Positions 14,163 through 57,771 are shown, counted from the stretch's first letter. The stretch is DNA of 64,000 nt from Candidatus Dojkabacteria bacterium (GCA_025999215.1 AP024679.1:357645-421644); one strand, 5' to 3'. A program made the numbers and translations. The notes: generated from the sequence alone by a model not told the origin.

Positions 14163-14180
14163 GTTTCTCAGTAGGAACTG

Positions 14181-33049: not shown

Positions 33050-33727
33050 ATGGCAGGGCATTCCAAATGGGCAAATATTAAGCATACAAAAAGTTTAATG
33101 GATAAAAAGAGAGGTAAACTTTTTAGTAAATTATCTCGTGATATCTCTGTAGCTGTGAAATTGTCGGGTAGTGAAAATAGCGCACTTGCAAAACTTGCAA
33201 TTGAAAAAGCTAAAGCTGCCAATATGCCAAAAGACAAAATTATGGTGGCAATTGACAGAGGTTTAGGAAGAGGTAAAGACACGGAAGTTTTGTATGAGAA
33301 TACTTATGAAGCGTATGCTCCAGGCAATGTTGCATGTTTAATTGATACTCAAACTGATAACCCCAATAGAACATTGACTGAGATTAAAACCATTGTTAAT
33401 AAATCAGGTGGAAAATTTTTGTCTTCGGGCTCAGTAAGTTGGATGTTTGATGAGGTTGGTAGAATAATAGTTGATGCATCAAAATTGAAAGATACTGAAG
33501 CATTCACTTTAAGTATTATGGAAGCTGAGGGATTGCTAGATGTTTCAATTCAGAATGATCAGGTTGAAATAATCACTGAAAAAGAAAAACTTAATTCTAT
33601 TCAAGAGTTAATTTTAAATAATTATCCAGAGACCGAATTTAAAGAGGTTGAAATAATCAAAAAACCCAAAAAAGAAAATGTGTTAATTCGGACAGAGATT
33701 TGTCCGAATTCTTGTCCGAATTATTAG
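33050..33727 (+). CDS. yebC: YebC/PmpR-family transcriptional regulator
   Basis: MAGHSKWANIKH..K...D.KR.K.F.KL.R.I is the canonical YebC N-terminus. The last about 13 codons (IRTEICPNSCPNY) are encoded by the TTCGGACA/TGTCCGAA repeat hairpin. Confidence 0.85.
   Translation: MAGHSKWANIKHTKSLMDKKRGKLFSKLSRDISVAVKLSGSENSALAKLAIEKAKAANMPKDKIMVAIDRGLGRGKDTEVLYENTYEAYAPGNVACLIDTQTDNPNRTLTEIKTIVNKSGGKFLSSGSVSWMFDEVGRIIVDASKLKDTEAFTLSIMEAEGLLDVSIQNDQVEIITEKEKLNSIQELILNNYPETEFKEVEIIKKPKKENVLIRTEICPNSCPNY
33686..33721. repeat. TTCGGACA / TGTCCGAA motif cluster forming a 9-bp-stem hairpin (attcggaca-gagatt-tgtccgaat) plus a third copy
   Basis: Read directly from the sequence at the 3' end of yebC: one forward and two reverse copies of the 8-mer. 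Confidence 0.55.
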
Positions 33728-33760
33728 ATCATGATGATGTAGTATCCGTTTGGACTAATC

Positions 33761-34266
33761 ATGTATGAACAAATTATTTTAGGTGTTGATGTAGGTTTTG
33801 CAATTACTGGATGGGCGATACTAGAGTCATCCTCAAAAATTAATCTTCTTGATTATGGCGCAATAACTACTAAATCAAAGCTATCTATAGATGAGATTGG
33901 TTAAATTATTTATTCGATGGAATTGTTGAAGTAATAAATACTTATAAACCTACAGACATGGCTGTTGAGTCGATTTTTTATTTTAAAAACCAAAAAACTG
34001 TTATAGATGTGGGCCAGGCTAGAGGAGTAATATTATTAGCTGGATGTCAGAATAACTTGAATATATCTCACTACACTCCGCTTCAGGTTAAAATGTCAAT
34101 AACGGGATATGGTAGAGCATCAAAAGAGCAAATGCAACAAATGGTTAAATCTATCTTTGGTTTAAAAGAAATTCCCAAGCCGGATGATGTGGCAGATGCA
34201 ATCGCTGTTGCTTATTGTCATAGTTCATCAAGTAAATTTTATTCCAATTTGAATACCAAAACATAA
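33761..34266 (+). pseudogene. ruvC: Holliday junction resolvase RuvC with an apparent 1-nt deletion frameshift near 33896-33904
   Basis: N-terminal 47 codons (MYEQIILGVDVGFAITGWAILE...KLSIDEIG*) hit a stop at 33902-33904. The +2 frame continues LNYLFDGIVEVINTYKPTDMAVESIFYFKNQKTVIDVGQARG... to 34266. Both parts have RuvC motifs (GiDpG..tG; catalytic region D.ADA.A.A..H). Confidence 0.7.
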
Positions 34267-34292
34267 TTATTTTTTAGTGTTATAATGATTTA

Positions 34293-34805
34293 ATGATAAA
34301 GTTATTAAGCGGGCGAGTAGTCTCTCAAAAAAATGGAGCAACGATAATCCAAACCAATGATGGGGTAGGTTGGGATGTAAAAACTGGTAGTATTGTTTTG
34401 GAAGTAGGTCAGCAGGCTGAACTTTATATTTTTACACAATTTAGAGAATACGAAATATCATTGTGGGGCTTTTTGAGTTTGAATGATTTAGAAATGTTTG
34501 AACTTTTGATTTCTGTAAATGGAGTCGGAGCAAGGATTGCGCATAGTATGGTAACTGAATTGGGGAGAGATCTGATAATCAAAGCAATTAGTTTAAATGA
34601 TGCAAATTCTCTTAAAATATCGGGTGTTGGTCTTAAGACTGCTCAAAAAATAATTTTTGCTCTTAAAGAAAAAATTACTGATCAAGATTTTGCGGTAGAT
34701 GAAAGTCAATTAAATTTAAATCAAAATTTCAAAGAAGCACTTGATGCCCTAGAGGGCTTGGGGTATAACAAAGTTCAAGTTAGTAAAATTTTAAAGGACA
34801 TATAA
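34293..34805 (+). CDS. ruvA: Holliday junction DNA helicase RuvA (short form)
   Basis: OB-fold N-terminus (MIKLLSGRVV...) and HhH pairs (LISVNGVGARIAHSMV; ISGVGLKTAQKII). Confidence 0.8.
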   Translation: MIKLLSGRVVSQKNGATIIQTNDGVGWDVKTGSIVLEVGQQAELYIFTQFREYEISLWGFLSLNDLEMFELLISVNGVGARIAHSMVTELGRDLIIKAISLNDANSLKISGVGLKTAQKIIFALKEKITDQDFAVDESQLNLNQNFKEALDALEGLGYNKVQVSKILKDI

Positions 34806-34890
34806 CGGAGAGTTTTCTAATTTGAGTACTGAAGAGTTGGTTAAGCTAGCTTTAAAAAACTTAAAATAATATTTTTTAAAAATTTTAAAA

Positions 34891-35841
34891 TTGAACAGTA
34901 GATTTGTTTCATCTTCTCTGAAAAATGAAAACGAGGAGAGATTTGAGCAATCTCTTAGGCCTAAAACTTTTGATGAAGTTATTGGTCGAGAAGCTGAAAA
35001 ACAAAGTTTAAGCATAATGATTGAATCTGCCAAAAAAAGAGGAAAAGCTCTAGATCATATTATGTTTCATGGCCCACCTGGGTTGGGAAAAACAACTTTA
35101 TCTTACGTAGTTGCGTCCGAAATGAACGTACCAATACATATTACAAGTGGCTCGGCTATTGAAAAAACAGGAGATTTGGCGGCCATTTTGACATCACTTG
35201 AACCCAATTCAATTTTATTTATTGATGAAATACATAGACTTAAAAGAACAATTGAGGAGATTCTTTATCCGGCAATGGAAGATAATGTTTTGGACATTGT
35301 TATTGGTAAGGGTCCAAGCGCAAAAACTCTACGTTTAGAGCTTAATCAATTTACAATCATCGGTGCAACCACGAAACTTTCAATGATTAGCGCGCCGCTT
35401 AGAGATAGATTTGGAATGCATTTTAGACTAGATTTTTATTCTGACGATGAGTTGACCTTACTGGTACAGCAAAAAGCAAGGTTACTTGGTATAGAGATTG
35501 ACGATGAAGCTTCTCTTAAAATTGCTCAAAGGAGTAGAATGACAGCGCGAATAGCTATTAGAATTTTGAAAAGAGTTTTTGATTTGGCGGTGGTGAAAGG
35601 TGAGAAAATAATTAATCCTTATCTTGTTGAAGAAACACTTTCTATGATGGGAGTTGATGAAAACGGTTTAGATGAATTGGATAGAGCAATACTAAGATCT
35701 ATTTTGAAAAATTTTAACAATCGCCCTGTTGGTTTGAATACACTAGCAGCGTCTTTATCAGAAGAGCCAGAAACTATAGAATTGGTTTATGAACCTTTTT
35801 TAATTAAAAAAGGGTTTGATACAAAGAACTATGAGGGGTAG
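34891..35841 (+). CDS. ruvB: Holliday junction DNA helicase RuvB
   Basis: LRPKTFDEVIGRE, Walker A GPPGLGKTT, Walker B LFIDEIHRL, sensor and winged-helix C-terminus. The start is probably a TTG/GTG. Confidence 0.9.
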   Translation: MNSRFVSSSLKNENEERFEQSLRPKTFDEVIGREAEKQSLSIMIESAKKRGKALDHIMFHGPPGLGKTTLSYVVASEMNVPIHITSGSAIEKTGDLAAILTSLEPNSILFIDEIHRLKRTIEEILYPAMEDNVLDIVIGKGPSAKTLRLELNQFTIIGATTKLSMISAPLRDRFGMHFRLDFYSDDELTLLVQQKARLLGIEIDDEASLKIAQRSRMTARIAIRILKRVFDLAVVKGEKIINPYLVEETLSMMGVDENGLDELDRAILRSILKNFNNRPVGLNTLAASLSEEPETIELVYEPFLIKKGFDTKNYEG

Positions 35842-37732
35842 AATTGCTACAGATTTAGCTCAAAAACTTTATGGAGATAAATTGTAAAATTTTATATTTA
35901 AATGAAATTTAATTTTAAAAAACTAACAGTTAGACAAAAAGTAACAATATCTTCTTTTTTTTATCTTTGCTTATTTTTTTCTTGATTAGTCCACTGGGTA
36001 GGTATTTTGGTAAGTTTAGTAACTCCACCAAAGACTGTAAAAAATATTTTTATATTATCAAAAAATAATGAAATAGAAATTAGTTATCTCTCAAAATAAA
36101 GAAGTTGATTTCAGTGCATACATAATTACATTAAAAAGAGAAGGAACTGTTGAAAAAGAAATTATAACTCAAGAAACAAGAGTTCTTATTTCGGACATTT
36201 CGGACAGTGTAGAGTATGATCTGGAGATAAAAAGTAAAGATAAATTTGGGCTTGAATCTAGTACTGTTGCTACTAAAGTTACGCCTAGTTTTGACTTGAT
36301 TCTCAAACATTAAATTCTTTTGATAGAAATGATACTTTTGATTTTTACTTGATAGTAATGTTTTGATTGTGGTTGTTGTTGGTTCTATATTTTCATTCTG
36401 GATAGTTGGATTTAATCAAAATAAACAGTTGCTTTTACTATAATTTTATTTCCTATGTGCTTGAATGCCTATTTTACTTTTTATTAAGTTCTGTCAGTTT
36501 TTATATTAATCACATATTGATAATAAGTTTTATTTTTCAATTTGTCTAGTGTAGGGTTGTTTTTGTATTTTATTTTTTGTTTTTGACTATGAATATTTTG
36601 TTTAATGCTCACTTTAGATCAATACCCTTGAACAAGCTGCAAAAGCGTCTCAATTTATTTTTATATTGATATCAACATATATTTTGTTAATTTATGCTTT
36701 TGGTTCAAATGTTAATTTTATTTTTAAAATAGGTTGAGTTTCTCTAATGATATTTTATTTTTCATATGTTTCAATGTGGACTTTGAAAGAATCTCAACAG
36801 AGCAAATACAATTAGAAGCTTGGTGATGGTTATGATTATGGTAATGTCTGTGGTTGATATTTTCTATTTGGCCAGTTAATTATATTTATGCAATGCTTAT
36901 CAAGCGCAATTATTTTTTATATTATGTTGAGTATTAGCTTGGAAGTTAGGACTTTTTAGGTAGGTATGTGTGGCTGGAATACGGAATCTTAGTTTTACTA
37001 ACTACTTTCTACTTTTATTTACAGTAGTTGGGGATAATGGAAGTTTATAATGTTAATATTCATAGTTTAATTAATTTAATAAATAGAAGATTTAATAACC
37101 ACTTTCATAATTACTAGAGTAGTGTAGCTTAATTTCTATTTGATTTTACTTTATAAGTTTTTTTAATTTCAAATTAATTCTTTTCGATTTTTTAAATAAT
37201 TAAAAATATTCTAAAAAAATCGTAAGAGTAGTATATCAATTGTGGATAACTGTAAGTATAGTTACTGAGTATAATGTATCTTATATTTAGTAAAATGGTG
37301 GAAAAACAGAATAGTAATATGCAACTAATTTAATTATTTTTTTTCTTCATATTTTATAATTCTTTTTATATTAATAACGTTGTTAATTTTTTAACTTCAA
37401 CTTTTTTTTTAGCGACTTTTAACTTTTATCTTTTATTCTTTTATTCTCTAATTTTAACTTTTAATTTTTTTTTGTTTTTACTATGTTTCATAAAGGATTT
37501 AAAACTAATTTTGACTAATTTTTAATCTTGAAGTTTTGAACTTGAAAATCTTTATTATTTTTAGATGAGTAAAATATCAGTTTTAAAAAAACAGGCCTTA
37601 AATCGCATCTGAGCGCTTCGTTTGTGGATAGTTTTACTAGCAATGGTTTTAGGGCTTTATGTAAAATAATTGCTAATTTACTAAATTTAAATTTGTTAGT
37701 TTTTTTTTATATTTTATCTTTAACTAAAAACT
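35842..37732. other. 1.9 kb ORF-free AT-rich region between convergent ruvB and gyrA, with a gene remnant and DnaA-box-like 9-mers
   Basis: No ORF of 60 aa or more on any frame. Contains a stop-initiated 77-codon coding-like remnant (36080-36312), the tandem repeat tttcggaca-tttcggaca (36189-36206), TGTGGATAA at 37241-37249 and TGTGGATAG at 37623-37631, long poly-T tracts and strong T-over-A strand skew. Confidence 0.5.
36189..36206. repeat. Direct tandem duplication tttcggaca-tttcggaca
   Basis: Read directly from the sequence. Confidence 0.55.
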
Positions 37733-40342
37733 TTAAACAATTGCAACGGTTGCGACAACATCATCATCTTTAACTCTCATTAATCGAACACCTGAAGTTT
37801 GTCGGCCTTGAATTGGTAAATCATCAGTTGCGATCCTCACAGCCTGACCTTTTGCGCTTAAAATCAAAAGTTCTTTGTGAGGATGATCTAGTATTCTTGC
37901 AACCACAAGTTTGCCAGTTTTATTGTTAATTTTTGCTGCAAAAATACCTGAACCGCCTCGGTTTTGAATTGTGTAATTATTCAGGGTCGTTAATTTACCA
38001 AAACCTTTTTCGCTTACTGTAAGCATAAAATCTTCATTTTTTCTAACTATATCCATTGATATAACTTCGTCATCTTTTTTTAATCTAATACCTCTAACAC
38101 CTCGTGCGGTTCTACCTGTTTCACGCACATCTGTTTCACGGAAATGTATAGATTTGGCATTTCGGGTAACAATAATAACATGATCATTACCAGTGCTTGG
38201 TTTAACCCAAACTAATTCATCATTATCATCTAGGGAAATTGCAATTAAACCATTAGATCTAATATTATCAAAATGACTTAACTCTGTTTTCTTAACAACT
38301 CCAAATTTTGTTGCCATAATCAAGTATTTGTATTCTATGCCTTGTTTCTCAGATAAAGTTTCACCTTCTTGGCTGATATCTTCATCAATGATTCCTCCTT
38401 CCTTAGACCGTGTTAAAATACTTGTTATCAATTCATCTTGCTCAATATTAATCAAATTAATAACAGGTATGCCTTTGGCTGTTCTTGAATATTCAGGAAT
38501 TTCATGAACTTTCAACGAATAGACTTTTCCTTTGTTGGAGAAAAATAAAATTTCATCATGAGTAGAGCATGTAAAAACATGTCTAACTTCATCGTTTTCT
38601 TTTGTAGTCATTGCTTTTTTCCCTACTCCACCCCTTTTTTGGGCTGAAAGCGCATCATGTTTTACTCTTTTTATATACCCATTTTTGCTTATAGTTACGA
38701 TTGTTTCTTCATTTGGAATTAGATCTTCTTCACTAATTTCGCCTACTCCACCCTTTACGAATTTTGTTTTTCTTTCATCACCAAATTTATTTTTAATTTC
38801 TTCAAACTCATTTTTAATTACATTTAAAATTTTGTCTGGTGAAGATAATAATTCTAGTGTCTCTTTAATTGATTTCAAAACTTGTTTATATTCTTCCTCA
38901 ATCTTCTGTCTTTCAAGAGCTGCTAGTTTTCGAAGTTGCATATCAAGGATTGCTTGAGCTTGAATTTCAGTGAGCTTAAACTTAGTTATAAGAGCTAACT
39001 TTGCGGTTTCTGCATCTTTTGAGCTTCTAATTGTTTGAATTATCTCATCAATGTTATCAAGAGCAATCATTAAACCTTCTAGAATATGTTCTCTTTCTCT
39101 TAGTTTTCCTAATTCAAATTCATTTCTTCTAATTACTATTTCTTGGCGATGAGATATGAAAAGTTGCAAAATTTGTTTAATATTTAGAAGCTTGGGATCT
39201 CCATCAACCAAAGCTAGCATATTGGCATTAAATGTTTTTTGGAGTTCAGTGAACTTATAAAGTTGATTTTGTACAGTTTTTGGTTTTGCTTCTCTTTTTA
39301 ATTCTATGACTATCCTAATTCCCTCACGACTATTTGATTCATCCCTTAAGTCTGAAATCCCATCAATTTTTTTATCTTTATAGAGCATTGCTATTTTGGC
39401 AATTAAATTTGCTTTGTTGACTTGATAAGGCAAATCTGTAATGATTATACGCATTCGGCCATTTTTATGTTCTTCAATTTTGGATGTACCTCTCATCACT
39501 ACGCGTCCTTTTCCTGTTTCATAAACTTTCATTATTTCTTTTTGATCATAAATTGTCCCGCCCGTTGGAAAATCTGGACCTTTTATTTCGGACATTATTT
39601 CGGACACTGACAAACTTGTCTCAAATTTGTGGAATCTATTTTTTGGTAAATTCTCAATATCAGAAACCGTTTTTACTGCATTAGAATAATCAACTTTTTC
39701 GATATCAACAAAATCCCATTCGTTGCCAGCTTCAATCATTTTAATTAAAGCATTCATTACTTCAGTTAAATTGTGAGGTGGAATTTTGGTAGCCATACCA
39801 ACTGCAATTCCTTCTGATCCATTCAATAATAATGTAGGCAAAACAGTAGGCAATACAACAGGCTCTTCTTCGTTTCCATCATAGTTTGGTATAAAATCAA
39901 CAGTTTTTTTATCTAATTCTTCAAGCATTTTGGCCCCGTATTTATCTAACCTTGCTTCTATATATCTCATTGCTGCTGGTGGATCACCGTCTATAGATCC
40001 GTAGTTACCTTGCCCATCAATTAGGGTATATCTCATGTTGAAATCTTGTCCCATTCTGACCAATGCATCAGAAATTGAAGCATCTCCATGAGGGTGATAC
40101 TTACCCATTACTTCTCCAACGATTCTTGCAACTTTTTTATATTGAGAAGAAGGGCCTATATTCATCCTGTGCATGGTGTAAAGAATTCTTCTTTGCACAG
40201 GTTTTAATCCATCACGAACATCTGGAAGTGCTCTTGATACAATTACGCTCATCGCATAATTGATATAGCTTTTCTTAAGCTCATTTACAATATCTTCTCC
40301 AACTGAAGCTTTTTTATTTAATTTGGTTTCTTCTTCAATCAT
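37733..40342 (-). CDS. gyrA: DNA gyrase subunit A, with a lineage-specific insertion of about 35-40 aa between PPHNLTEV and GPDFPT
   Basis: 869 aa; active-site region (AMRYIEARL), GyrA box, six C-terminal beta-pinwheel blades. The segment 39598-39756 is about 38 aa longer than in E. coli GyrA, and its 3' part is the tandem 12-mer atttcggacatt-atttcggacact. Confidence 0.9.
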   Translation of the reverse strand: MIEEETKLNKKASVGEDIVNELKKSYINYAMSVIVSRALPDVRDGLKPVQRRILYTMHRMNIGPSSQYKKVARIVGEVMGKYHPHGDASISDALVRMGQDFNMRYTLIDGQGNYGSIDGDPPAAMRYIEARLDKYGAKMLEELDKKTVDFIPNYDGNEEEPVVLPTVLPTLLLNGSEGIAVGMATKIPPHNLTEVMNALIKMIEAGNEWDFVDIEKVDYSNAVKTVSDIENLPKNRFHKFETSLSVSEIMSEIKGPDFPTGGTIYDQKEIMKVYETGKGRVVMRGTSKIEEHKNGRMRIIITDLPYQVNKANLIAKIAMLYKDKKIDGISDLRDESNSREGIRIVIELKREAKPKTVQNQLYKFTELQKTFNANMLALVDGDPKLLNIKQILQLFISHRQEIVIRRNEFELGKLREREHILEGLMIALDNIDEIIQTIRSSKDAETAKLALITKFKLTEIQAQAILDMQLRKLAALERQKIEEEYKQVLKSIKETLELLSSPDKILNVIKNEFEEIKNKFGDERKTKFVKGGVGEISEEDLIPNEETIVTISKNGYIKRVKHDALSAQKRGGVGKKAMTTKENDEVRHVFTCSTHDEILFFSNKGKVYSLKVHEIPEYSRTAKGIPVINLINIEQDELITSILTRSKEGGIIDEDISQEGETLSEKQGIEYKYLIMATKFGVVKKTELSHFDNIRSNGLIAISLDDNDELVWVKPSTGNDHVIIVTRNAKSIHFRETDVRETGRTARGVRGIRLKKDDEVISMDIVRKNEDFMLTVSEKGFGKLTTLNNYTIQNRGGSGIFAAKINNKTGKLVVARILDHPHKELLILSAKGQAVRIATDDLPIQGRQTSGVRLMRVKDDDVVATVAIV
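39595..39618. repeat. Tandem 12-nt duplication containing ATTTCGGACA twice, in-frame inside gyrA (encodes SEIMSEIK on the minus strand)
   Basis: Read directly from the sequence. Confidence 0.55.
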
Positions 40343-40371
40343 TTTATTTTATTTTAAATTAAGTCTAAAAA

Positions 40372-42283
<1,912 letters not shown>

Positions 42284-42335
42284 AGCTTAACGTGAAGATT
42301 TTACCAAATAAATGAAAAATAGTCCAATTAATGAT

Positions 42336-43641: not shown

Positions 43642-45585
43642 ATGGACTCAAAAAACAATGTATCAAATTCAAATAATGATGATTCTCTAAATAGTAGTTT
43701 GGGAGTTGTACAGTCATCTAATGACGATGCCCTTCCAAATTCAAATCTTTCTGATTCCCAAAGCGATTTAGTTTCTTTATCAAAAAACTTTCTACAACAA
43801 AAAACAAAAAAAACAGATTCAAACCAAAAATCTGCTATCGGAGTCAAAGGCATATCAAATATTTTAGATGCTGTTTTAAGTAAAGGTTTAATAGATATAG
43901 ATCAGTACAATAGTATAAAATTTGAATCCGTAAACACTGGCAAAACAATTGAAAAGATTTTGCTTGAGCAGAATATTGTAGATGAAAAGGAGTTAGCAAG
44001 AATTAACGCTGAGATGAGAGGATTTAGTTTTGCTGACTTGCTAAACATGAATATTGACTCAGATACCATCAATTTGCTTCCTCAATCAATAGCTAGAGCG
44101 AACAAGGCGGTTGTTTTTGAATCTCTACCCAACAAAGTTAAGGTGGCAATGAAAGATCCGCTTGATTTGCAAAAAATTCAGTATTTAGAATCTATTTTGA
44201 AAAAAAGAATAGAGCCTTTTTATGCATCAGAAAGCGATATTAAGCGAATCATTGATACTCGTTATGGTGCTGAAATAAATAAAGAGGTTACAGAGGCGTT
44301 AGAAGATATTGGGGAATATGATTTAAACAAAGCTAAAAAGGAGGCAGAAAATTCTGATGGACAAGATGCACCAATAATTCGATTGGTAAATATGATTTTA
44401 GATTATGGGATTAAAAATAAAGCTTCAGATATACACATTGAACCAAGAGAAACTAAAGTGGCTGTAAGGTTCAGAATAAGAGGAATTTTAACTGAAAAAT
44501 TAACCATTCCAAAAAAGTTACATCCAGCAGTTGTGGCAAGGATAAAAATTTTGTCAAATTTAAAAATTGATGAGCACAGAATACCTCAAGATGGAAGATT
44601 CCCAGTTAAAAATAATGATGTATCAATTGATGTGAGAGTTTCAGTGATGCCAAGTTTATATGGTGAAAAAATAGTTTTAAGATTGCTCGAAAAATCTTCC
44701 GGAATCATGAAATTAGAAGAAACAGGCATTCGTGGAATTAGTTACACCAGACTTAAGGAGGCGTTGAAAAAAACACAAGGATTGATCTTGGTAACAGGAC
44801 CAACTGGAAGTGGAAAGACGCAGACTGTTGCAAGCTGTTTAGACATTATAAATTCCCCTGAAGTTAATATTATCACTCTTGAAGATCCCGTTGAAATTAG
44901 AATTGAAGGCATTAATCAAACTCAAGTGAATCCAGAAGTCGGCCTTACTTTTGCTACTGGGTTGAGATCAATTTTGAGGCAGGACCCAGATATCATATTT
45001 GTTGGAGAAATTCGTGATGGTGAAACAGCGGCTCTTGCAGTGCAAGCAGCTCTAGTTGGAAGATTAGTACTTTCAACATTGCACACAAATAGCGCGGCTG
45101 GAGTCTTTCCTAGGCTTTTAGATATGGGGGTTGAAGTTTTTTTATTAACATCTACAATAAATGTAGCGTTGGGTCAACGTCTTGTTCGTACTCTTTGTGA
45201 AGAATGTAAAGAACCATACAAGGCACCTGATAATATTTTAAAAATTTTACATTCTGAGTTAGATGTATTGGGGAATTTGACAGTTTACGATGAAGCAAAG
45301 CATGTGAAGGCGCATTTCGATAAAAACACAAATGACGTAACATTATACAAACCTGTAGGATGTCCGAAATGTAACGATACTGGCTTTAATGGCCGAATTG
45401 GTATTTTTGAATGTCTGGAAATGTCCGAAAGTATTAAAAAAGCAGTTGTACAAAAAAGATCAATAAGCGAAATTCAAGATATAGCTGTGAAGGAAGGAAT
45501 GATAACAATGGCACAAGATGGGTTTATAAGAGTATTGGAAGGAGTTACAACTATAGAAGAAGTATTAAGAGTTAAAAATGAATAA
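43642..45585 (+). CDS. pilB: Type IV pilus assembly ATPase PilB (GspE family) with low-complexity N-terminal region and CxxC zinc motif
   Basis: GSPII_E N-domain; Walker A GPTGSGKTQT; Asp/His boxes; CPKC...C zinc tetracysteine. Confidence 0.9.
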   Translation: MDSKNNVSNSNNDDSLNSSLGVVQSSNDDALPNSNLSDSQSDLVSLSKNFLQQKTKKTDSNQKSAIGVKGISNILDAVLSKGLIDIDQYNSIKFESVNTGKTIEKILLEQNIVDEKELARINAEMRGFSFADLLNMNIDSDTINLLPQSIARANKAVVFESLPNKVKVAMKDPLDLQKIQYLESILKKRIEPFYASESDIKRIIDTRYGAEINKEVTEALEDIGEYDLNKAKKEAENSDGQDAPIIRLVNMILDYGIKNKASDIHIEPRETKVAVRFRIRGILTEKLTIPKKLHPAVVARIKILSNLKIDEHRIPQDGRFPVKNNDVSIDVRVSVMPSLYGEKIVLRLLEKSSGIMKLEETGIRGISYTRLKEALKKTQGLILVTGPTGSGKTQTVASCLDIINSPEVNIITLEDPVEIRIEGINQTQVNPEVGLTFATGLRSILRQDPDIIFVGEIRDGETAALAVQAALVGRLVLSTLHTNSAAGVFPRLLDMGVEVFLLTSTINVALGQRLVRTLCEECKEPYKAPDNILKILHSELDVLGNLTVYDEAKHVKAHFDKNTNDVTLYKPVGCPKCNDTGFNGRIGIFECLEMSESIKKAVVQKRSISEIQDIAVKEGMITMAQDGFIRVLEGVTTIEEVLRVKNE

Positions 45586-48028: not shown

Positions 48029-48044
48029 TTCGGACATTCGGACA
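48029..48044. repeat. Adjacent tandem attcggac-attcggaca immediately after the pilC stop codon
   Basis: Read directly from the sequence (cagttcaaTGAttcggacattcggacaagg). Confidence 0.55.
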
Positions 48045-48154
48045 AGGGTAAGTTTTTTGTTTAGTTTTAGATATAGTTTGAAAATGTATTGACAAAAAAT
48101 AAAAAAATTGAGAAATTGATATAGTCATATTAATTTATTTGTTAATTCAAAAAT

Positions 48155-48598: not shown

Positions 48599-48619
48599 AA
48601 GGTGTAAAAATAGTTATTT

Positions 48620-49087
48620 ATGAAAAATTTATTGAAGAAAAATTTAGGCCGTAAGCCTAAATTTTTCTTTGTCGACAAAACCAAAAAAGCTTTCACCATG
48701 ATTGAAATAGTGGTGGGCTTAGCTGTGATTACGGTTTTAGTTGCTCTAGGTGTAACAGGAATTTCAATTTTACAAAAAAATAGTCGCGATTCAATGCGAA
48801 AAGAAAAGTTACTTGAAGTTGCAACTTTGGTTGAAAATTACTTCCGTGAGAATTTGACATATCCTAGTTCTCAAAGCCTTGTTTTTAGTGGCAATCAAAT
48901 TTTACTTGAAGGTGATATAGTATCAGATATAAAAGGTCATTTACAAGTTGGGGATGTAACTACATCTTCGCAAACTAGATATTACTATCAAGCTACTTCA
49001 AGTGGTTATGCCTTGTGTGCAGTTTTAGAAAATAATAAAGTTTATTCAGCGGGAAAAATTGAGTGTCCGGATCCTTCAATGTGGTAG
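48620..49087 (+). CDS. Type IV pilin-like protein (second pilin); true start probably downstream of 48620
   Basis: KKAFTMIEIVVGLAVITVLVALG prepilin N-terminus; C-terminal Cys pair. The 5' end of the ORF-track model overlaps the pilA terminator, so a later start codon is likely. Confidence 0.65.
   Translation: MKNLLKKNLGRKPKFFFVDKTKKAFTMIEIVVGLAVITVLVALGVTGISILQKNSRDSMRKEKLLEVATLVENYFRENLTYPSSQSLVFSGNQILLEGDIVSDIKGHLQVGDVTTSSQTRYYYQATSSGYALCAVLENNKVYSAGKIECPDPSMW
48638..48670 (+). terminator. Rho-independent terminator after pilA (aaaaatttaggc-cgtaa-gcctaaattttt followed by cttt)
   Basis: 12-bp stem read directly from the sequence; U-rich 3' side. Confidence 0.5.
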
Positions 49088-49093
49088 CTTGAC

Positions 49094-49924
49094 ATGCTAT
49101 TCTTAAGTATGGAAAATTTATTAATTTTGTTAGGTTTCTTGTTAGGAGGCATAGGTGCAAAGTTGAGTGCGTTTTATATTGCATCAAATCTAAATCTCAA
49201 AAATTTTAAAAACGTAGAAAGTAAGAGAAATTTTTACATTTTTTTTCCTTTAAGTTCTTTTTTCTTAAAAAATAATTTTTTGAAAAAGGAAATTTTTCCA
49301 ATTTTATTTCTTGAACTTTTTGGAATGGTTTTAGGTGGAGCTTTTGTTGTCTCCATCTTGAAATATATTTCAACATTACAATTAAATTTTGCAGGAGAGG
49401 TTTTTATGGTTTCAATTTTTTTAGTTGTAACTTTTACTCTATTGTTTTTATCTGTTTTTGATATATTGACTTTAAGTGTGCCTACCAATTTGGTTAAAAG
49501 TTTATATATTTTTACGATATTGATTAATTTATTCATAGCTTTATTAAAACTTCTATCACTAAGATTTGGTTGGGGTATGTTTGTAGAAAATGTTCCGTTG
49601 GGCGGATTTGATAACTTAATATGCGCCTTATTATTATCTTTGTTAGTTTGGTTACTTTCAAAGTTAACCAAAGAATCTGCAATGGGGATGGGTGATGTCG
49701 ATATCGCTGGAATTGTAGGAATAATGCTGGGATGGCCAAATATTATTGCAGGATTTATGTATACCTTGTATGTTGGTGGCTTTGTTGGGATAATATACAT
49801 GATATTTTTAAAAAAATTTAGAGACACGCTAGTTCCATTTGTTCCGATTATCACTTTAGGGTTTGTATTGAGTTTGGGGTTTTATAAAATTGTTACAGAT
49901 TTATTTTTGTATGGTGTATATTAA
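49094..49924 (+). CDS. pilD: Prepilin peptidase PilD (A24 family)
   Basis: Polytopic membrane protein with GMGDVDIAGIVGIMLGW (the second catalytic Asp motif of A24 peptidases). Confidence 0.7.
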   Translation: MLFLSMENLLILLGFLLGGIGAKLSAFYIASNLNLKNFKNVESKRNFYIFFPLSSFFLKNNFLKKEIFPILFLELFGMVLGGAFVVSILKYISTLQLNFAGEVFMVSIFLVVTFTLLFLSVFDILTLSVPTNLVKSLYIFTILINLFIALLKLLSLRFGWGMFVENVPLGGFDNLICALLLSLLVWLLSKLTKESAMGMGDVDIAGIVGIMLGWPNIIAGFMYTLYVGGFVGIIYMIFLKKFRDTLVPFVPIITLGFVLSLGFYKIVTDLFLYGVY

Positions 49925-50468
49925 AAAAGCTTTTTCATTGTTAGAAATAATTGTAGTTTTGGGGATTACCGCTGCAGTTATGAGCGGTGGGGTTTTGGCG
50001 TTGATCAGGTTTCAAGATTCAGCTGAATTTAATAGATATTTTTCTGATACTGTTTCTTTGATTAAGACAACTCAAAATCGCTCATACAATGGTGTTTTAA
50101 GTCAGACCAAATCGCTAGCTCTTGGTGGAAATGCGCTAGAATCAGTACCAGAATACTATGCAATTATCATTGATGAGAATGATGATTCGATTGGTCTTTA
50201 TTATTGTGATGAAACATTGACTGGTATTTTATCGTGTTTTCGAGAACAAGAAATTTTAGTAATTGATTTTCCAAGTGATATTCAAGTTAGTAGTACTGGG
50301 TGTAGTGGTGTTGGGTTTAAAACTTTAAATCCAGATATAATTTTAATAAATTCTAATGGGACTTTTACAACCAACGGAGTGTGTGAAATCACCTTGACAC
50401 ATACTAACCTAAATCGAAATAATACTTTAGAATTTAATGCAGATAACAATGTTTTTGAACTTAATTAA
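49890..50468 (+). CDS. Minor (pseudo)pilin with prepilin-type N-terminus
   Basis: IKKAFSLLEIIVVLGITAAV N-terminus (G-F-S-L-L-E). Confidence 0.6.
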   Translation: MLQIYFCMVYIKKAFSLLEIIVVLGITAAVMSGGVLALIRFQDSAEFNRYFSDTVSLIKTTQNRSYNGVLSQTKSLALGGNALESVPEYYAIIIDENDDSIGLYYCDETLTGILSCFREQEILVIDFPSDIQVSSTGCSGVGFKTLNPDIILINSNGTFTTNGVCEITLTHTNLNRNNTLEFNADNNVFELN

Positions 50469-50988
50469 ATTAAAAATAAAGAATCAAAAATTGAAGAAAG
50501 CATCAAGTCTGGTCGAGGTTTTAATCATTTTGAGCATTATCTCAACTACTGTAATTGCATCAACAACAATTGCAGTTAATTCTCAAAAGTCTCTCATACG
50601 CAATGAAAGAGAGGAGGTAGTTAATGCAAGCATAATTGCGGGGTTAGAAATTGTTAAAAGTCCTACCAATGTTTTAGTTTTGGGTGATCCAATTAATCCT
50701 GGCTCTTCTAAAGTGTATAGATTAACAAAACAAACAAATCCTGACAGGTATGTGTTAGAGGAAAGATCTGAAGAATTACAAAACTGTACAAATAATAGCC
50801 CTTTTCAAGTATCCATTGATAATTTGGGGCAAGAAGTAAATTTTCCGTTATGTTTGAGCGTTACAATTACTAGACAACAGGGACAAGAAAGTTACTTGGT
50901 TACCGTCAAAGCAGTTTATCAAAATGCTAGCACACAAGATACAAAGACTTTAATTGGTTATAGAAATGATGAATTTACTTTTATTTAA
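50437..50988 (+). CDS. Minor (pseudo)pilin with prepilin-type N-terminus
   Basis: KKASSLVEVLIILSIISTTVIA N-terminus. Confidence 0.6.
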   Translation: MQITMFLNLIKLKIKNQKLKKASSLVEVLIILSIISTTVIASTTIAVNSQKSLIRNEREEVVNASIIAGLEIVKSPTNVLVLGDPINPGSSKVYRLTKQTNPDRYVLEERSEELQNCTNNSPFQVSIDNLGQEVNFPLCLSVTITRQQGQESYLVTVKAVYQNASTQDTKTLIGYRNDEFTFI

Positions 50989-51490
50989 AACAAAAAAAGG
51001 CTACTCCTTAGTTGAGGTGGTCGTTAGCTTAGCAATAATTGCTATTATTATAACTATATTGTTTAACACTGTTTTGATAACTATTAGAATTAGTTATAAA
51101 AATTTTGCAAGAAGTTTAATCCGTGAAGAGTTGTCCGAAATATCAACTTTGATATCAAGGGATGTCCGAAATGCTGACCAAATTCTATCGTGTACTGGTA
51201 GCGCTTGTGAGATGGTCAGAGATGGTGTTATTATTCGTTGGACTCTTTGCGATTCTGTTTCTGTTTGTAGACAAGAGTCTCAAGATGGTATAAATTATGT
51301 TAATTTGTATCAAACTTTAGATTTTATAATTATAAATTTATTAAATTTTGAGAATGGTTTTGGTGTTGATGAAAATTTAGCCCAGAGAAATATAGTTTTT
51401 ACTATGGTAGCTGAGCATTCAAATCCAGATTTAAGTATTTCAAATGTTATAAGACAACAAAGTGTATCAACTAGAAACTTTAGCCGCTAA
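50954..51490 (+). CDS. Minor (pseudo)pilin with prepilin-type N-terminus
   Basis: KKGYSLVEVVVSLAIIAIIITILF N-terminus; contains two GTCCGAAAT motifs 38 nt apart. Confidence 0.6.
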   Translation: MVIEMMNLLLFKTKKGYSLVEVVVSLAIIAIIITILFNTVLITIRISYKNFARSLIREELSEISTLISRDVRNADQILSCTGSACEMVRDGVIIRWTLCDSVSVCRQESQDGINYVNLYQTLDFIIINLLNFENGFGVDENLAQRNIVFTMVAEHSNPDLSISNVIRQQSVSTRNFSR

Positions 51491-52352
51491 AAAAAATGCT
51501 CAAATAATGTTAATTACCTTAATGGTTTTAGTTATTTTGGGGGTAATTATAAGTGGAATTGTAATTATTTTACAAAGTGATACCAGTCAAACTGTATCAA
51601 ATGAAAAATACGAACAGTTGTATAATAATGCCGAAGAGAACTTGAAAAAAATCGCTAAAGATTACGCTGCTTACACAGTATCTTTATCTTCAATTCCCAC
51701 TAATTTTACGGAATGTGTAGAACAAATTGCTGGCATAAAATATCAATGTCAATTCAATGATTCACAATTTACCACCATTTCCGTTTCAAACACTACCCAA
51801 ATAGAAGAGTCTAAGGTGGTTAGTGATTATGAAATTAAAAAAGATGAAATGTTTACAATTAATTTAAATAATTATAAAAATGAAATTATTTTTAAATGGG
51901 ATCGTGACTCTGCAATTGAGTTAGGTTTATTATTTCAAGATTCTGCGGGACAATATAGAATAGTTAAAGATGTTTTTGATCCCACAAATTTATTTAGCAG
52001 TGGGACCGTTAATCCACATTCATTTAATTTTAGTCCAATAAGCGGAGAGGATCCTAATAAAAGTTTTTCTATCGATTTATCTAGCGTATCTAGTGTAGGT
52101 TCGACAGACAATTTATTGTATCTTACTGTAACACCAAGAATGAGAGATACTTTTGGGAGTATTAGAATAAATATTGAACCCCTTGATCCTTCAACTTTTC
52201 CATATCAGGTACGAATTATTACTTCTTCCTCACTTGATCAAAATGATGGACAAAGCCCAGTTGTAAAACTACAAACTCAAATACCGCTCACTCCGCAAAT
52301 AGATTCAATATTTGACTACTCTCTTTTGTCAAATGGAGATATAGGTTTATAG
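51462..52352 (+). CDS. PilX-like minor pilin / pilus tip-associated protein (no Glu5)
   Basis: Hydrophobic N-terminal helix AQIMLITLMVLVILGVIISGIVIIL without the conserved Glu, as in PilX-N-terminal-domain proteins; located in the pilin block. Confidence 0.4.
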   Translation: MYQLETLAAKKNAQIMLITLMVLVILGVIISGIVIILQSDTSQTVSNEKYEQLYNNAEENLKKIAKDYAAYTVSLSSIPTNFTECVEQIAGIKYQCQFNDSQFTTISVSNTTQIEESKVVSDYEIKKDEMFTINLNNYKNEIIFKWDRDSAIELGLLFQDSAGQYRIVKDVFDPTNLFSSGTVNPHSFNFSPISGEDPNKSFSIDLSSVSSVGSTDNLLYLTVTPRMRDTFGSIRINIEPLDPSTFPYQVRIITSSSLDQNDGQSPVVKLQTQIPLTPQIDSIFDYSLLSNGDIGL

Positions 52353-52404
52353 AAATTGTAATTATTAAAATTTTAAATTATCATTAAATAGTTTATATTA
52401 AAAT

Positions 52405-53442
52405 TTGTTTATGGCACAGTTACCAGATTTTTTCGGACTAGATTTAGGACATAATTCCTTTAAGATGATTGATTTAAAGCTTAAAAATAATAAGGCAGAG
52501 CTTGAAAATTTACATGTAGCAAAAGCGCAGGAATTAGATTGGAATAATATGGACGCGTCTACCATCAAAAAGGTTTCTGAAATTTTAAGTAGTGAAATTA
52601 AAAAATCAAAAATTAAGGCTAAAAATTGTGTTTTATCTCTTCCAGAATCTTCAGTATTTTCTCGATTAATTAGGCTTCCAAAAGTCAAAGATGATGAAGT
52701 TTCAGAATCAATTCAGTGGGCTATCAAGCCTTTAATACCTGTAGATATAAATGATGTAAATATTTCTTTTTTGGAAATTGACACTGTGAATGAAGACAAG
52801 CAGGAATTTATAAATTGGTATGTAGTAGCTGCACCTAAAAAATTAGTTGAAAAGATTGTTGATACAATTGAGGGGGCTGGATTGAGGCTTTTGGCAATTG
52901 AGACTGAAGCCCTAGCCATAACGCGATCGGTTTACTTTAATCATTCTCCAAAAAGCGATGTGATAATAATAGATTTTGGTGCTAAAAGTACTAATGTCAT
53001 ACTCTCTAGAAATGGAGTTGTTATGTTTGCTCAAACAATTAATACAGGATCAGACGATTTGACAAAAGTAATAGCTTCTGATTACGGTATTGATATTGAA
53101 ATTGCAGAAAAATATAAAAACTCGTTTGGTATTGATAAAACTTTAGGGGAGGGAAAAATTGCAAGTTCAATTGAACCTGTAATGAATGTAATGATAAGTG
53201 AAATTTCTCGGGCTTTGACTTATTTTCGCGAAAGAATAAGCGATAAACCAGCAAATGAAATATACCTAACTGGAGGAGGTGCGAGTTTGCCTGGATTAGA
53301 GTCATATGTCACAAGTAAAATTGGTCTTCAGGCAAAGCTTGTTAATCCGTTTTTAAATATAGATTTGAAAAATAAAAAGCTTGAAAACATGAATATAAAT
53401 AGCTTTAGTGTTGCAGTTGGATTAGCTTTAAAAACTAGTTAG
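52405..53442 (+). CDS. pilM: Type IV pilus assembly protein PilM (actin-like ATPase fold)
   Basis: FFGLDLGHNSFKMIDL N-terminus and actin/FtsA-like phosphate motifs (IIIDFGAKSTNV; YLTGGGASLPGL). Confidence 0.85.
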   Translation: MFMAQLPDFFGLDLGHNSFKMIDLKLKNNKAELENLHVAKAQELDWNNMDASTIKKVSEILSSEIKKSKIKAKNCVLSLPESSVFSRLIRLPKVKDDEVSESIQWAIKPLIPVDINDVNISFLEIDTVNEDKQEFINWYVVAAPKKLVEKIVDTIEGAGLRLLAIETEALAITRSVYFNHSPKSDVIIIDFGAKSTNVILSRNGVVMFAQTINTGSDDLTKVIASDYGIDIEIAEKYKNSFGIDKTLGEGKIASSIEPVMNVMISEISRALTYFRERISDKPANEIYLTGGGASLPGLESYVTSKIGLQAKLVNPFLNIDLKNKKLENMNINSFSVAVGLALKTS

Positions 53443-53443
53443 T

Positions 53444-54747: not shown

Positions 54748-54757
54748 ATAGAAAAAA

Positions 54758-55129: not shown

Positions 55130-55182
55130 ATTTTTGTAATTAAACTTTATTATTCTATCAGAAAAAACAAATTAAAACAATA

Positions 55183-55899: not shown

Positions 55900-56368
55900 A
55901 TAAATTAGCTAACTTTTCTTTTAGTTCTTGTGAATCTAAAATTGAACCTAAAACACCGTTTACAAAAGCACCATTTTCTTTGGATCCCATTTCTTTTGCA
56001 AGTTCAATTGCTTCATCTATTACAACCTTTTCGGGGTTTCTTCTTTCTATAAACCCTTCATAAATGGCCATTCTTAATATGTTCAAATCCACAGGATTGA
56101 TAAGTTCTATAGGCCATGAGGGCGCTAATTTTTGAATTATTGGATCAATTTCTTTAATGTATTTAAGAGTTCCTTCTACAAGCGCTTCATATAAACTCGT
56201 ATTAAACTTTGTTTCTTCCAGTTCTGCTAGGATTGAATTAGGTTCCAAAGGGACCATGTGATCAATGACATCTGAAAATTTAGGGGCTTGAGTAACATAA
56301 AAAAGATACTGCACTGCTAGCAGTCTTGCAAGATGTCTAGGATCTTTAATTTTTTGTAAATTATTCAT
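55886..56368 (-). CDS. nusB: Transcription antitermination factor NusB
   Basis: All-helical about 160 aa with RHLARLLAVQYLF N-terminal motif. Confidence 0.75.
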   Translation of the reverse strand: MNNLQKIKDPRHLARLLAVQYLFYVTQAPKFSDVIDHMVPLEPNSILAELEETKFNTSLYEALVEGTLKYIKEIDPIIQKLAPSWPIELINPVDLNILRMAIYEGFIERRNPEKVVIDEAIELAKEMGSKENGAFVNGVLGSILDSQELKEKLANLYEKK

Positions 56369-56374
56369 TAGAAC

Positions 56375-56587
56375 TTAATTATTAATCACTTTCACCCCTT
56401 TATGTTCTGGATTTAGTTTGGTAACTCTATGCGGAGGTACTTTAACATTATTTTTAGCTTTAATTAAAAATGTCCCTCCGTATTTTCTTAATTTTTTAAA
56501 CTTTTTAAGTAATTTATCATATCGATCAGCTCCTCTTGTAGATTTTCTTTTGCTGGAGCTTCTTCTGTGTTTCATTGTTGCTGCCAT
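56375..56587 (-). CDS. Small basic protein (70 aa), function unknown; weak L27-like N-terminus
   Basis: MAATMKHRRSSSKRKSTRGADRYDKLLKKFKKLRKYGG... The KH..SS...R..D and K.L.K.GG spacing is reminiscent of the bL27 N-terminus, but the C-terminal half does not match. Co-directional with nusB at a 6-nt gap. Confidence 0.35.
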   Translation of the reverse strand: MAATMKHRRSSSKRKSTRGADRYDKLLKKFKKLRKYGGTFLIKAKNNVKVPPHRVTKLNPEHKGVKVINN

Positions 56588-56666
56588 GAGTTTTCCATTA
56601 AAATTTTATACCTCAAATTTTAGCATTGTTTTTAAAATTAGTCTAATAAATTTTTATTTTGATAAA

Positions 56667-56699
56667 AGAAGCGATGGGCGAATTTCGCCCATCGCTTCT
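56667..56699 (-). terminator. Perfect 14-bp GC-rich hairpin (agaagcgatgggcg-aattt-cgcccatcgcttct) with T-runs on both sides, between rsmD and the small basic protein gene
   Basis: Read directly from the sequence; a likely intrinsic terminator or attenuator, usable from either strand. Confidence 0.55.
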
Positions 56700-56788
56700 T
56701 TTTCTCTAGGTCCTACCCCCAACATCCTAGATTTACTACTTTATATCAAATGAGTTTTGCTTATTCATTGTATTATGACGCAAATTTT

Positions 56789-57325
56789 TTAATTTTTTTT
56801 TAGAAAGTAAATTTTGTTACTTCCCAAAGTTTTTTCAAGTATTAAAAAATATTTTGTTTGATTTAAAGATTGCGAGCTTGGCCATTTTAAAATAATTATG
56901 CCGTTAGTGTTTAAAATTTCATCAACTTCATCAAGCACTAAGGAGTTTAGATTATTAAAAGGTGGGTCAATGAAAACAATATCAAATTTTTCACTACAAT
57001 TTTTTATGAATTTTTTAAATGATGATTTGACTACTCTAAAACTATCTTGTTGTAGTTTTAATTTTTGCGCATTTTGTAAAATAATATTGGTCGCTTCACT
57101 ATCATTATCAACAAAAACACAAAAGTTAGCGCCTCTGCTCAATGCTTCAAAGCCGAAACTACCTGAACCCGCAAAAAGATCCAAAACTTGTGCATTTTTT
57201 ATTAACTCACCAAGTGTGTCAAATATAGAAGTTTTAATTCTATCGGTTACTGGTCTTGCATTTTGTGGAACTTTAAGTTTTTGGTTTTTAAACTTTCCGG
57301 AAATGATTCTTGGATTCATGAACAA
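56789..57325 (-). CDS. rsmD: 16S rRNA (guanine966-N2)-methyltransferase RsmD
   Basis: VLDLFAGSGSFGFEALSRGA (SAM motif I) and FDIVFIDPPF (DPPF/NPPY-type motif IV). Confidence 0.8.
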   Translation of the reverse strand: MFMNPRIISGKFKNQKLKVPQNARPVTDRIKTSIFDTLGELIKNAQVLDLFAGSGSFGFEALSRGANFCVFVDNDSEATNIILQNAQKLKLQQDSFRVVKSSFKKFIKNCSEKFDIVFIDPPFNNLNSLVLDEVDEILNTNGIIILKWPSSQSLNQTKYFLILEKTLGSNKIYFLKKN

Positions 57326-57771
57326 AAAATAATATGCGATATGATTATTCCCGCTGATGTTGCTACGTTTAAAGATTCTTTTTGCCCTTGCATGGGAATA
57401 TGTACCGTTCCTAAAGAATTTGTTAAAAAACTTAAAGATACACCTGTAATTTCATGTCCGAATACTATTCCCAATTTGTCCGGATATTTAAATTTATGAA
57501 ATGGCACAGAATTTTTTGTAATTTCTGCTGTAATAATTGGTATATTGAGGGATTGAAGTTTATTTATACAATCTTCATTTTGTTTAAAATATTCCCACTC
57601 TACCCATTCTGTTGCGCCTAGAGCTGTTTTTTGAAGTTTTTTGTGTGGTGGGTATGGAGTTATGCCAGTAAGAAAAATTTTTTTTACTCCTAAGCCTTCG
57701 CATGTTCTAAAAATAGCCCCTACATTCAGCGCTGATCGAATGTTGTCTAAAATTACAAAAATGTCTTTCAT
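57316..57771 (-). CDS. SpoU/TrmH-family tRNA 2'-O-methyltransferase (TrmL-like, about 150 aa)
   Basis: NVGAIFRTCEGLGV, KLGIVFGHEITG and SLNVATSAGIII SPOUT motifs; size matches TrmL. Confidence 0.7.
   Translation of the reverse strand: MKDIFVILDNIRSALNVGAIFRTCEGLGVKKIFLTGITPYPPHKKLQKTALGATEWVEWEYFKQNEDCINKLQSLNIPIITAEITKNSVPFHKFKYPDKLGIVFGHEITGVSLSFLTNSLGTVHIPMQGQKESLNVATSAGIIISHIIFCS

Follow-up and report, generated by a model that had tools for sequence, protein, structure and literature searches.

A sharply defined 8-bp motif, paired and helically phased in the ruv-gyrase-pilus region of a Dojkabacteria clade, as a candidate for cooperative protein binding

A short GC-rich word recurs within one part of the genome of a Candidatus Dojkabacteria bacterium (GCA_025999215.1), and the question that it raises is what, if anything, the word does for its host. 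Candidatus Dojkabacteria, or candidate division WS6, belongs to the Candidate Phyla Radiation (CPR), also named Patescibacteria. The DNA considered here, termed the window, is a stretch of 64,000 nucleotides (AP024679.1:357645-421644) with a GC content of 28-33% (A+T about 69%), and the word is the 8-mer TTCGGACA, which reads TGTCCGAA on the complementary strand. An initial annotation of the window proposed a DNA-uptake signal as a plausible explanation and offered a dimeric regulator site or a miniature repeat as alternatives. The reading that we favour, tentatively and at nearly but not quite an even chance, is that the copies form cooperative protein-binding arrays with a local regulatory output.

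Fourteen exact copies of TTCGGACA occur in the window, all between positions 33687 and 57462, where 0.82 are expected from dinucleotide shuffles (14 was reached in none of 100) and 0.54 from an order-3 Markov model. The over-representation reported initially is thereby borne out, and the word ranks highest among the over-represented 8-mers of the window. Its 6-mer core, TCGGAC, occurs 19 times against 4.85 expected. The total number of one-mismatch variants is at chance level (20, with about 29 expected) and TTCGGACA is, therefore, a sharply defined word; five of these variants lie directly beside exact copies or beside each other (45390, 52432/52444 and 57477), and the near-copies previously listed at 8253, 35115 and 52432 all exist. 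Aligning the flanks of the 14 sites revealed an A at position -2 in ten of them and an A or T at position -1 in every one, followed by the invariant 8-mer. The unit is A-W-TTCGGACA and a longer conserved element is absent. No Rfam families were found overlapping the sites. Seven copies lie on each strand, and their orientation alternates along the region such that there is no chromosomal strand skew of the kind characteristic of the polar Chi and FtsK-orienting (KOPS) signals; the copies occur in all reading frames and both within and between genes.

The enrichment is local in the DNA examined. The first 33.6 kb and the last 6.5 kb of the window contain no copies and, when the window is combined with the five closest lineages, the ruv-gyrase-pilus side carries 32 copies in 127 kb (1.3 expected, a 25-fold enrichment) while the adjoining topA/comEC/dprA side carries 2 copies in 107 kb, with 1.0 expected (four to five lineages). 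For the relatives, the latter side is represented by L285, on the same contig as L001, L287, from the same assembly as L204, L286, from the same sample as L202, and L289, contiguous with L288, and these loci carry 0, 1, 1 and 0 copies, respectively. If clusters are counted as independent events, the contrast is 2 versus 22 (binomial p about 1e-4, calculated by hand). The topA side includes comEC, comEA, dprA, topA, ssb, recR and dnaX, and because it thus carries both competence and genome-maintenance genes, neither category explains the pattern. Nor does the confinement reflect a local duplication, since the flanks of the copies differ. Within the rich zone, where the density is 0.25 copies/kb, gyrB, vanZ and holB are nearly empty of the motif while the flanking gyrA and pilB are rich in it, although the difference between gyrA and gyrB, with lineages pooled, is only marginal (10 clusters in 61 kb versus 1 in 40 kb, p about 0.035). 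A search for homologs of the ABC transporter at the right end of the window yielded no close ortholog and did not extend the right-hand side in relatives.

The copies are also paired. For each of the 14 in the window, a second copy with no more than one mismatch lies within 61 nt and, in the clade, 37 of 57 copies have such a partner within 70 nt, where chance predicts 0.096 partners per site. Most window pairs are direct, with periods of 8, 9, 12 and 12 bp and also 22, 31 and 61 bp, and in the clade about one pair in three is inverted. Degenerate copies frequently accompany exact ones at 10-12 bp (L132, L204 and L124), as expected for an anchor site accompanied by weaker sites. After removal of near-duplicate lineages, the nearest neighbours in the same orientation gave 19 distances: 8, 9, 10, 10, 10, 12, 12, 22, 27, 28, 29, 29, 31, 32, 51, 60, 60, 60 and 62 bp. 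A Rayleigh test on these yielded R = 0.63 at 10-10.25 bp; p is about 0.0004 if the helical period is set in advance and 0.005 when periods of 7-15 bp are scanned, and 11 of the 12 distances above 12 bp fall within 2 bp of a multiple of 10. Codon periodicity is excluded as the cause because only 8 of the 19 distances are multiples of three. Copies recurring on the same face of the helix at about 1, 3 and 6 turns (10, 30 and 60 bp) carry the signature of cooperative protein binding and not that of any known uptake signal.

Comparison with related genomes shows that the motif is a property of this Dojkabacteria clade, with positions that turn over rapidly. In a collection of species representatives, the closest genome showed only 72% GyrA identity. 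Twenty-odd Dojkabacteria loci carry between 0 and 6 copies each, at varied places in gyrA, gyrB, ruvB, yebC, pilB, pilT, pilC, pilin genes and spacers. Motif-positive lineages comprise that of the window, L204, L203, L288, L193 and L132, and L202 and L126 appear to be motif-negative. Relative to per-locus Markov expectations, and beside the 25-fold excess given above, enrichment amounts to 3.1-fold in other Dojkabacteria of 58-72% GyrA identity (18 observed, 5.8 expected), 3.5-fold in those of 50-52% identity (7 and 2.0) and 0.9-fold in distant CPR (21 and 22.6), the last group comprising 937 kb of contigs of at most 48% identity that were recovered by a topA search of metagenomes. Thus the motif is common to related Dojkabacteria and at chance level in distant CPR. 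A sequencing artefact is excluded because the motif is present in short-read assemblies from independent samples. No alternative dialect of the motif was identified in related Dojkabacteria.

Several lines of evidence show that selection acts on the DNA and not on the encoded peptide: the motif is read in all frames and both orientations, it employs rare codons, and amino acid-changing substitutions create it. In agreement with what had been annotated, the codon-usage table shows that the coding copies use TCC (5.7% of Ser codons), TCG (3.8% of Ser), CCG (9.4% of Pro), CGG (2.4% of Arg) and GTC (6% of Val). Different frames are used within single genes, both in pilB and in a minor-pilin gene (Table 1). 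The reference for ortholog comparison was L001 (JGI Ga0373981_00007), a syntenic relative with 89% GyrA identity. Its gyrA encodes VAEIMTEI and lacks the motif where the mRNA of the window reads GTG TCC GAA ATA ATG TCC GAA ATA (VSEIMSEI), and it follows that both gyrA copies arose by amino acid changes (Ala to Ser and Thr to Ser). In L203 (75% identity) the motif occurs in the same gyrA loop but in the opposite orientation, with ISD codons in place of SE codons. Similarly, a pilB copy corresponds to a change from CSK in L001 to CPK in the window, and this copy (TGT CCG AAA, with the rare CCG) is common to the window, L204 (4547) and L288 (4862) and absent from L001. Between pilC and the pilin gene, the window pair is an insertion with respect to L001, in which the motif is missing from the intergenic region.

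The sites of the window are listed in Table 1, together with other features referred to in the text. The initial annotation had correctly located copies at the 3' end of yebC, immediately downstream of pilC and within gyrA, pilB and a pilin gene, although its coordinates for the gyrA pair (39597-39616) were displaced by 10 nt, and the copy at 57455 that it described as single is so only in its exact form, for it has a one-mismatch partner at 57477. The triple at the yebC end lies 41 nt upstream of the ruvC ATG (33761) and its copies can form a hairpin with a 12-bp stem (AATTCGGACA / TGTCCGAATT; RNA fold -18.8 kcal/mol, z = -3.6). An inverted pair is retained at the same yebC/ruvC place in L001 (16802/16828), and the hairpin is stable in both (z about -3.3 to -3.6) and lacks a T-tract. 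Another stable motif hairpin lies within a pilin gene of L204, and all of these hairpins are inside coding sequence and without a T-run. The first copy of the pair at 36190 is shared with L001, where the second copy lies elsewhere, 28 nt away. Between the two exact copies in pilB there is a one-mismatch copy, TTCGGCCA (45390), and the pilT start lies 156-224 nt downstream; the spacer pair after pilC is followed about 45 nt downstream by a conserved TTGACA and 111 nt downstream by the major pilin ATG. With respect to transcription, four clusters are sense and four antisense, and one pair is intergenic. The seven window clusters are spaced fairly regularly, at 2.5-6.3 kb. A role for the motif as -35 element or terminator was also considered and set aside; the promoter and terminator scan was uninformative in such AT-rich DNA.

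Table 1. Motif sites and selected genes of the window, and motif arrays on phage contigs (numbered on their own contigs)
Feature	Position	Strand	Context
Triple TTCGGACA	33687, 33701, 33713; span 33687..33720	+, -, -	True 3' end of yebC
Tandem pair, 9-bp period (ATTTCGGACATTTCGGACA)	36190..36206	+	Encodes ISDISD; in the frameshift-riddled ortholog of a 388-aa fn3/membrane protein
Tandem pair, 12-bp period	39587..39606	+	In gyrA (gene on - strand)
Two exact copies, 61 bp apart	45361..45429	-	3' part of pilB, frames 0 and 1
Abutting tandem pair, 8-bp period	48029..48044	+	Begins on the base after the pilC stop codon
Two copies, 31 bp apart	51132..51170	-	Minor-pilin gene 50954-51490 (N_methyl), frames 1 and 2
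Degenerate pair, 12-bp period (TTCGGACT, TTAGGACA)	52432..52451 (52432/52444)	+	5' end of pilM
Exact copy (57455) and one-mismatch copy TCCGGACA (57477), 22 bp apart	57455..57484	-	Inside SpoU-type methylase gene, about 130-160 nt upstream of rsmD-like start (57325, - strand)
gyrA	37733-40342	-	
ComEC, split in two ORFs	10186-11622 plus 9378-10199		
ComEA	11619-12161		
DprA	14395-15435		
Phage array, L088	4724-4833		
Phage array, L084	4445-4540		
Phage array, L071	5193-5300		
Phage array, L076	498-606		
Phage array, L050	11854-11965		

Among characterised systems, the arrays most resemble the binding sites of Streptomyces BldC, a 68-residue winged-helix monomer related to MerR and Xis that binds cooperatively, oligomerising head-to-tail on variable numbers of 9-bp direct repeats (PMC5859096). 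The BldC family has been reported in about 500 bacterial species, and two architectural proteins, RacA and Xis, are among the structural relatives of BldC (PMC5859096). Few bases are recognised by BldC (AATTxxxxC), AATTCGGACA being its optimal unit; the site used for crystallisation, "whiI opt", is CAATTCGGACAATTCGGACA and the native site contains TGTCCGAA (PMC5859096). The unit A-W-TTCGGACA is essentially identical to the BldC unit, and the two systems have in common head-to-tail direct repeats in variable numbers, an AT-rich tetrad preceding a GC core and a mixture of exact and degenerate units; the 9-bp period of BldC recurs at 36190 in the window. They differ in that all eight positions are invariant in the window motif while BldC is tolerant, and in that the window copies are also inverted, spaced at 8, 12, 22, 31 or 61 bp and often intragenic, in a CPR bacterium and not an actinomycete. 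The match is best regarded as a lead, and not as proof of membership. The micro-filaments of lambda Xis and other recombination directionality factors, and phage operators, offer a further parallel, with winged-helix monomers acting cooperatively on closely spaced, phased repeats.

On the favoured reading, each A-W-TTCGGACA unit would be a docking site for one subunit of a putative sequence-specific DNA-binding protein. Two or more units, on the same helix face and about 1, 3 or 6 turns apart, some with a degenerate partner, would be occupied cooperatively, and the resulting nucleoprotein complex would be bent or looped. The arrays cluster in three operons that adjoin one another (yebC-ruvCAB, gyrBA and the type IV pilus cluster), and many lie 20-330 nt upstream of internal starts (ruvC, pilT, the major pilin gene and rsmD); for these reasons the most likely output would be local transcriptional or architectural control of the three. 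Protein binding, cooperativity and regulatory effect are, all three, what we infer. Pairing and phasing favour a protein-binding site, as the regulator alternative of the initial annotation supposed, but the fixed dimer that it envisaged misfits the variable spacing, and the geometry fits cooperative multimers on variably spaced units instead. Such cooperative arrays would explain together the pairing, the phasing, the degenerate partners, the local restriction and the identity with the BldC unit. The arrays would then belong with cooperative direct-repeat binding sites, unusual in being written into essential coding sequence.

A number of observations weigh against this interpretation. No small open reading frame (ORF) resembling BldC, HTH_17 or MerR was found in the 64-kb window, which is less than 10% of the source genome, or in the Dojkabacteria loci of the relatives, which are a small part of any one genome, using tblastn, phmmer, an ad hoc HTH_17 profile and Pfam scans of small and unassigned ORFs; the BldC query sequence was confirmed against PDB 6AMA/6AMK. 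The 8-mer is far sharper than the degenerate specificity of BldC, and a strict head-to-tail arrangement at 9 bp is hard to reconcile with inverted pairs and periods of 8 and 12 bp. No start codon is near several of the arrays, which are buried within gyrA or the fn3 gene; in L288 the four copies are all single, without a pair among them; and fast positional turnover between relatives is unusual for operators. Moreover, in a manual tally over the five lineages with the best annotation, a co-oriented start codon follows 10-11 of 19 clusters at a distance of 0-370 nt, which is not significant, about 7 being expected by chance, and is suggestive only. These include sites before ruvC (window and L001), pilT (at non-homologous positions in the window, L203 and L204), the major pilin gene, a minor pilin gene and rsmD, and one at the pilC start codon itself (L203). 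YebC was considered as the binder and rejected, since the single published YebC-family motif that was found (SSTAGACR) has just GACR in common with TTCGGACA.

The surrounding genes bear on the rival explanations. The left part of the window carries ATP-grasp genes, genes for ribosomal proteins, SecE and NusG, the competence genes of Table 1 and genes for TopA, RpsB, DnaX, RecR, SSB and DnaB. There follows a yebC-ruvC-ruvA-ruvB block with an fn3/membrane protein gene and then, on the other strand, gyrA-gyrB-vanZ-holB. A full type IV pilus cluster comprises pilB, pilT, pilC, two pilin genes, pilD, several minor pilin genes (minor pilins are encoded at 48620-52352) and pilM/N/O, and the right end carries rpsP, rnc, nusB, rsmD, a SpoU methylase gene, uppP, recG and an ABC transporter gene. 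Thus the competence machinery claimed for the window (ComEC, ComEA, DprA, PilB/T/C, pilins, PilD and PilM/N/O) is all encoded there.

It is this machinery that lends interest to a DNA-uptake signal, by which the pilus, ComEA and ComEC would import DNA carrying TTCGGACA preferentially, and biased uptake followed by recombination would drive its accumulation. A short, exact, sharply enriched word with its one-mismatch variants at chance level, used equally on both strands and in any frame or orientation, in coding and intergenic DNA, with hairpin-forming inverted pairs at a gene end and conservation at the level of the lineage, in a host that encodes Com proteins and a pilus with minor pilins, is reminiscent of the uptake sequences of Neisseria (DUS) and Pasteurellaceae (USS). 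The rare codons, the origin of copies by nonsynonymous change and intergenic insertion, and their location elsewhere in the same genes of relatives, even reversed at one gyrA loop, point the same way. There is also a precedent, in that ComEC-dependent natural transformation has been demonstrated in another CPR phylum (PMC10633639). Nevertheless, the DNA examined does not show a genome-wide motif: the copies are confined to one region, and at about chance in the adjoining 107 kb, an outcome that the initial annotation itself had named as counting against an uptake signal. A local k-mer enrichment alone can mimic an uptake signal, and the adjoining 100 kb constituted the decisive control. Classical DUS and USS occur at about 1/kb, and even the rich zone is about 4-fold below this. 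Known uptake signals show neither obligate pairing nor direct tandems nor helical phasing, the hairpin is without the T-tract of a terminator, and a literature search revealed no uptake sequence for Patescibacteria. We consider an uptake signal unlikely. Equally doubtful is its most specific form, that TTCGGACA is the first uptake or self-recognition signal of the CPR, with same-face pairs read by a multivalent pilus receptor and concentrated in gyrase and pilus genes because allelic exchange is favoured there; if the uptake reading were true, it would extend uptake-signal biology beyond the Proteobacteria and would suggest a DNA design for transforming uncultured CPR. Somewhat less likely again are chromosome-architecture or centromere-like sites, analogous to parS, the ram sites of Bacillus subtilis RacA or matS, at which a dedicated protein would organise, anchor or segregate the zone rather than control genes one by one. 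Those sites are likewise exact, rare words, often intragenic, spaced at the kb scale in one chromosomal zone that persists while positions drift between species, and the window word lies in coding DNA irrespective of gene position. The fairly regular cluster spacing, the sharp left boundary common to four lineages and the relationship of BldC to RacA and Xis (PMC5859096) would accord with such a role. However, parS, ram, matS and Noc-binding (NBS) sites are palindromes, bound in the case of parS, ram and matS by symmetric dimers, while the window unit is asymmetric and occurs in direct or inverted pairs; no canonical parS was found in the window and no ParB- or RacA-like gene was seen, and the near-empty gyrB, vanZ and holB beside rich gyrA and pilB look gene-specific, not zonal.

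The remaining alternatives deny the motif a role of its own or make it mobile. That it is a functionless by-product of peptide or codon preference, slippage duplication or an RNA hairpin or stability element is improbable. Some pairs are indeed in-frame duplications (LSEF-LSEL, SEIM-SEI and ISD-ISD), the yebC hairpin is stable as RNA and the enrichment of another word, GGAATTCC, is probably just that of a Gly-Ile-Pro peptide. Yet the copies fall in different frames, on sense and antisense strands and between genes, their codons are the rarest available, the identical word appears at non-homologous sites in many lineages, and slippage cannot account for the same 8-mer at every site. More improbable still is a miniature mobile repeat, akin to miniature inverted-repeat transposable elements or repetitive extragenic palindromes, or the footprint of a mobile element. 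Its sole encouragement is that, compared with L001, the tandem pair between pilC and the pilin gene appears to have been inserted. Sequence conservation ends at the 5' A-W, leaving no extended conserved flanks, most copies arose by point substitution within conserved codons, and most lie in genes, in-frame in essential ones; the flank logo and the ortholog alignments effectively refute this last proposal of the initial annotation.

Comparable TTTCGGACAT arrays are carried by phage contigs (L088, L084, L071 and L076), and here the same 10-mer stands beside helix-turn-helix (HTH) genes, which implies that it is a workable protein-recognition sequence. These arrays, on IMG/VR contigs of 58-65% GC, are dense, each packing 5-7 (T)TTCGGACA(T) units of both orientations into about 110 nt (Table 1). 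That of L088 is intergenic, just downstream of a gene for a 682-aa primase/helicase-like protein; a YdaS/Cro-like HTH ORF is present on the L088 and L084 contigs and, in L088, is located directly upstream of the primase gene. Probably they are operator or origin arrays in which an unrelated group of phages employs this 10-mer. They differ from the window arrays in adjoining YdaS/Cro-like HTH and primase genes and not pilus or gyrase genes, and the window shows no sign of a prophage, integrase or att site. A scan of viral contigs for the paired pattern yielded mostly chance singles among the matches listed.

Other words are also enriched in the window and in related genomes. The palindrome GGAATTCC occurs at six sites of the window (316, 24106, 32624, 42039, 47654 and 58722), with about 0.7 expected, and five of the six are in coding sequence where it can encode Gly-Ile-Pro, such that its enrichment is probably peptide-driven. 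The 7-mer GGGTAGG occurs nine times (1.5 expected) and is mostly coding (for example at 11220, 17109 and 34363). For the close relatives, 8-mers related to GAGTAGGGGA (CCCTACTC and GTAGGGGA) are the top enriched words, with about 30 occurrences against 6-7 expected, counts that are pooled over L129, L133, L136, L151, L193 and L196 and inflated by the pooling of homologous loci. Dojkabacteria of about 51% GyrA identity (L143, L145, L151, L152, L166, L196 and L197) carry TAGCGTGTGATGA in convergent pairs 300-900 nt apart, as at 17773/18459/18910 in L143, with conserved flanks AAAACAAAATAGCGTGTGATGA and CCTAGAAGACTCTAGCGTGTGATGA. Its core 8-mer, GCGTGTGA, occurs 15 times (0.7 expected), is absent from the window and contains a box-C-like GTGATGA; TAGCGTGTGATGA may delimit small RNA genes or an element.

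Certain features of the window concern its genes and its assembly. The ComEC protein is split such that DUF4131 and the Competence domain are encoded by one ORF and the metallo-beta-lactamase domain by a second, overlapping ORF. Since the same split occurs in the window (9378-11622) and in all three relatives (L285, 3825-5799; L286, 486-2775; L289, 3463-5785), it is a feature of the clade, and an assembly error can be excluded. Six tRNA genes are present, a Thr-Tyr-Thr cluster (13997-14253) between rpmB and dprA and genes for Trp, Leu and Ser tRNAs (9041-9114, 30485-30573 and 63321-63410), and none contains the motif. Single-base frameshifts break yebC (33680-33770), ruvC (33890-33960), gyrB (41200-41290), recG (59110-59180) and the fn3/membrane gene (35900-37000), some of which are essential; only the yebC frameshift adjoins a motif copy. 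An additional A in TTAAC produces that of gyrB, the recG break lies near a T6 run and the 388-aa fn3 ortholog has many shifts. Relatives have intact versions of gyrB, ruvC, yebC and the fn3/membrane gene; for recG there was no relative for comparison. An alternative genetic code or insertions were ruled out as the cause, given that the splits are single-base frameshifts, and these look like uncorrected long-read indel errors in a single-contig metagenome-assembled genome rather than pseudogenisation. Runs of at least 9 A or T are depleted throughout the window (9 observed and 57 expected for the 9-mer) despite its A+T content, and either real avoidance or homopolymer compression in a long-read assembly could be the cause.

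In the searchable literature, neither uptake sequences nor cis-regulatory motifs are described for Dojkabacteria or Patescibacteria, and the present observations stand against a background of very few known CPR regulators and no characterised cis-elements. Carried in the coding sequences of gyrA and the pilus genes despite the amino acid changes that it entails, the motif provides a concrete handle on a putative DNA-binding system of the CPR. If the putative binding protein controls the pilus, the arrays would have a bearing on the episymbiotic lifestyle and the competence of these bacteria.

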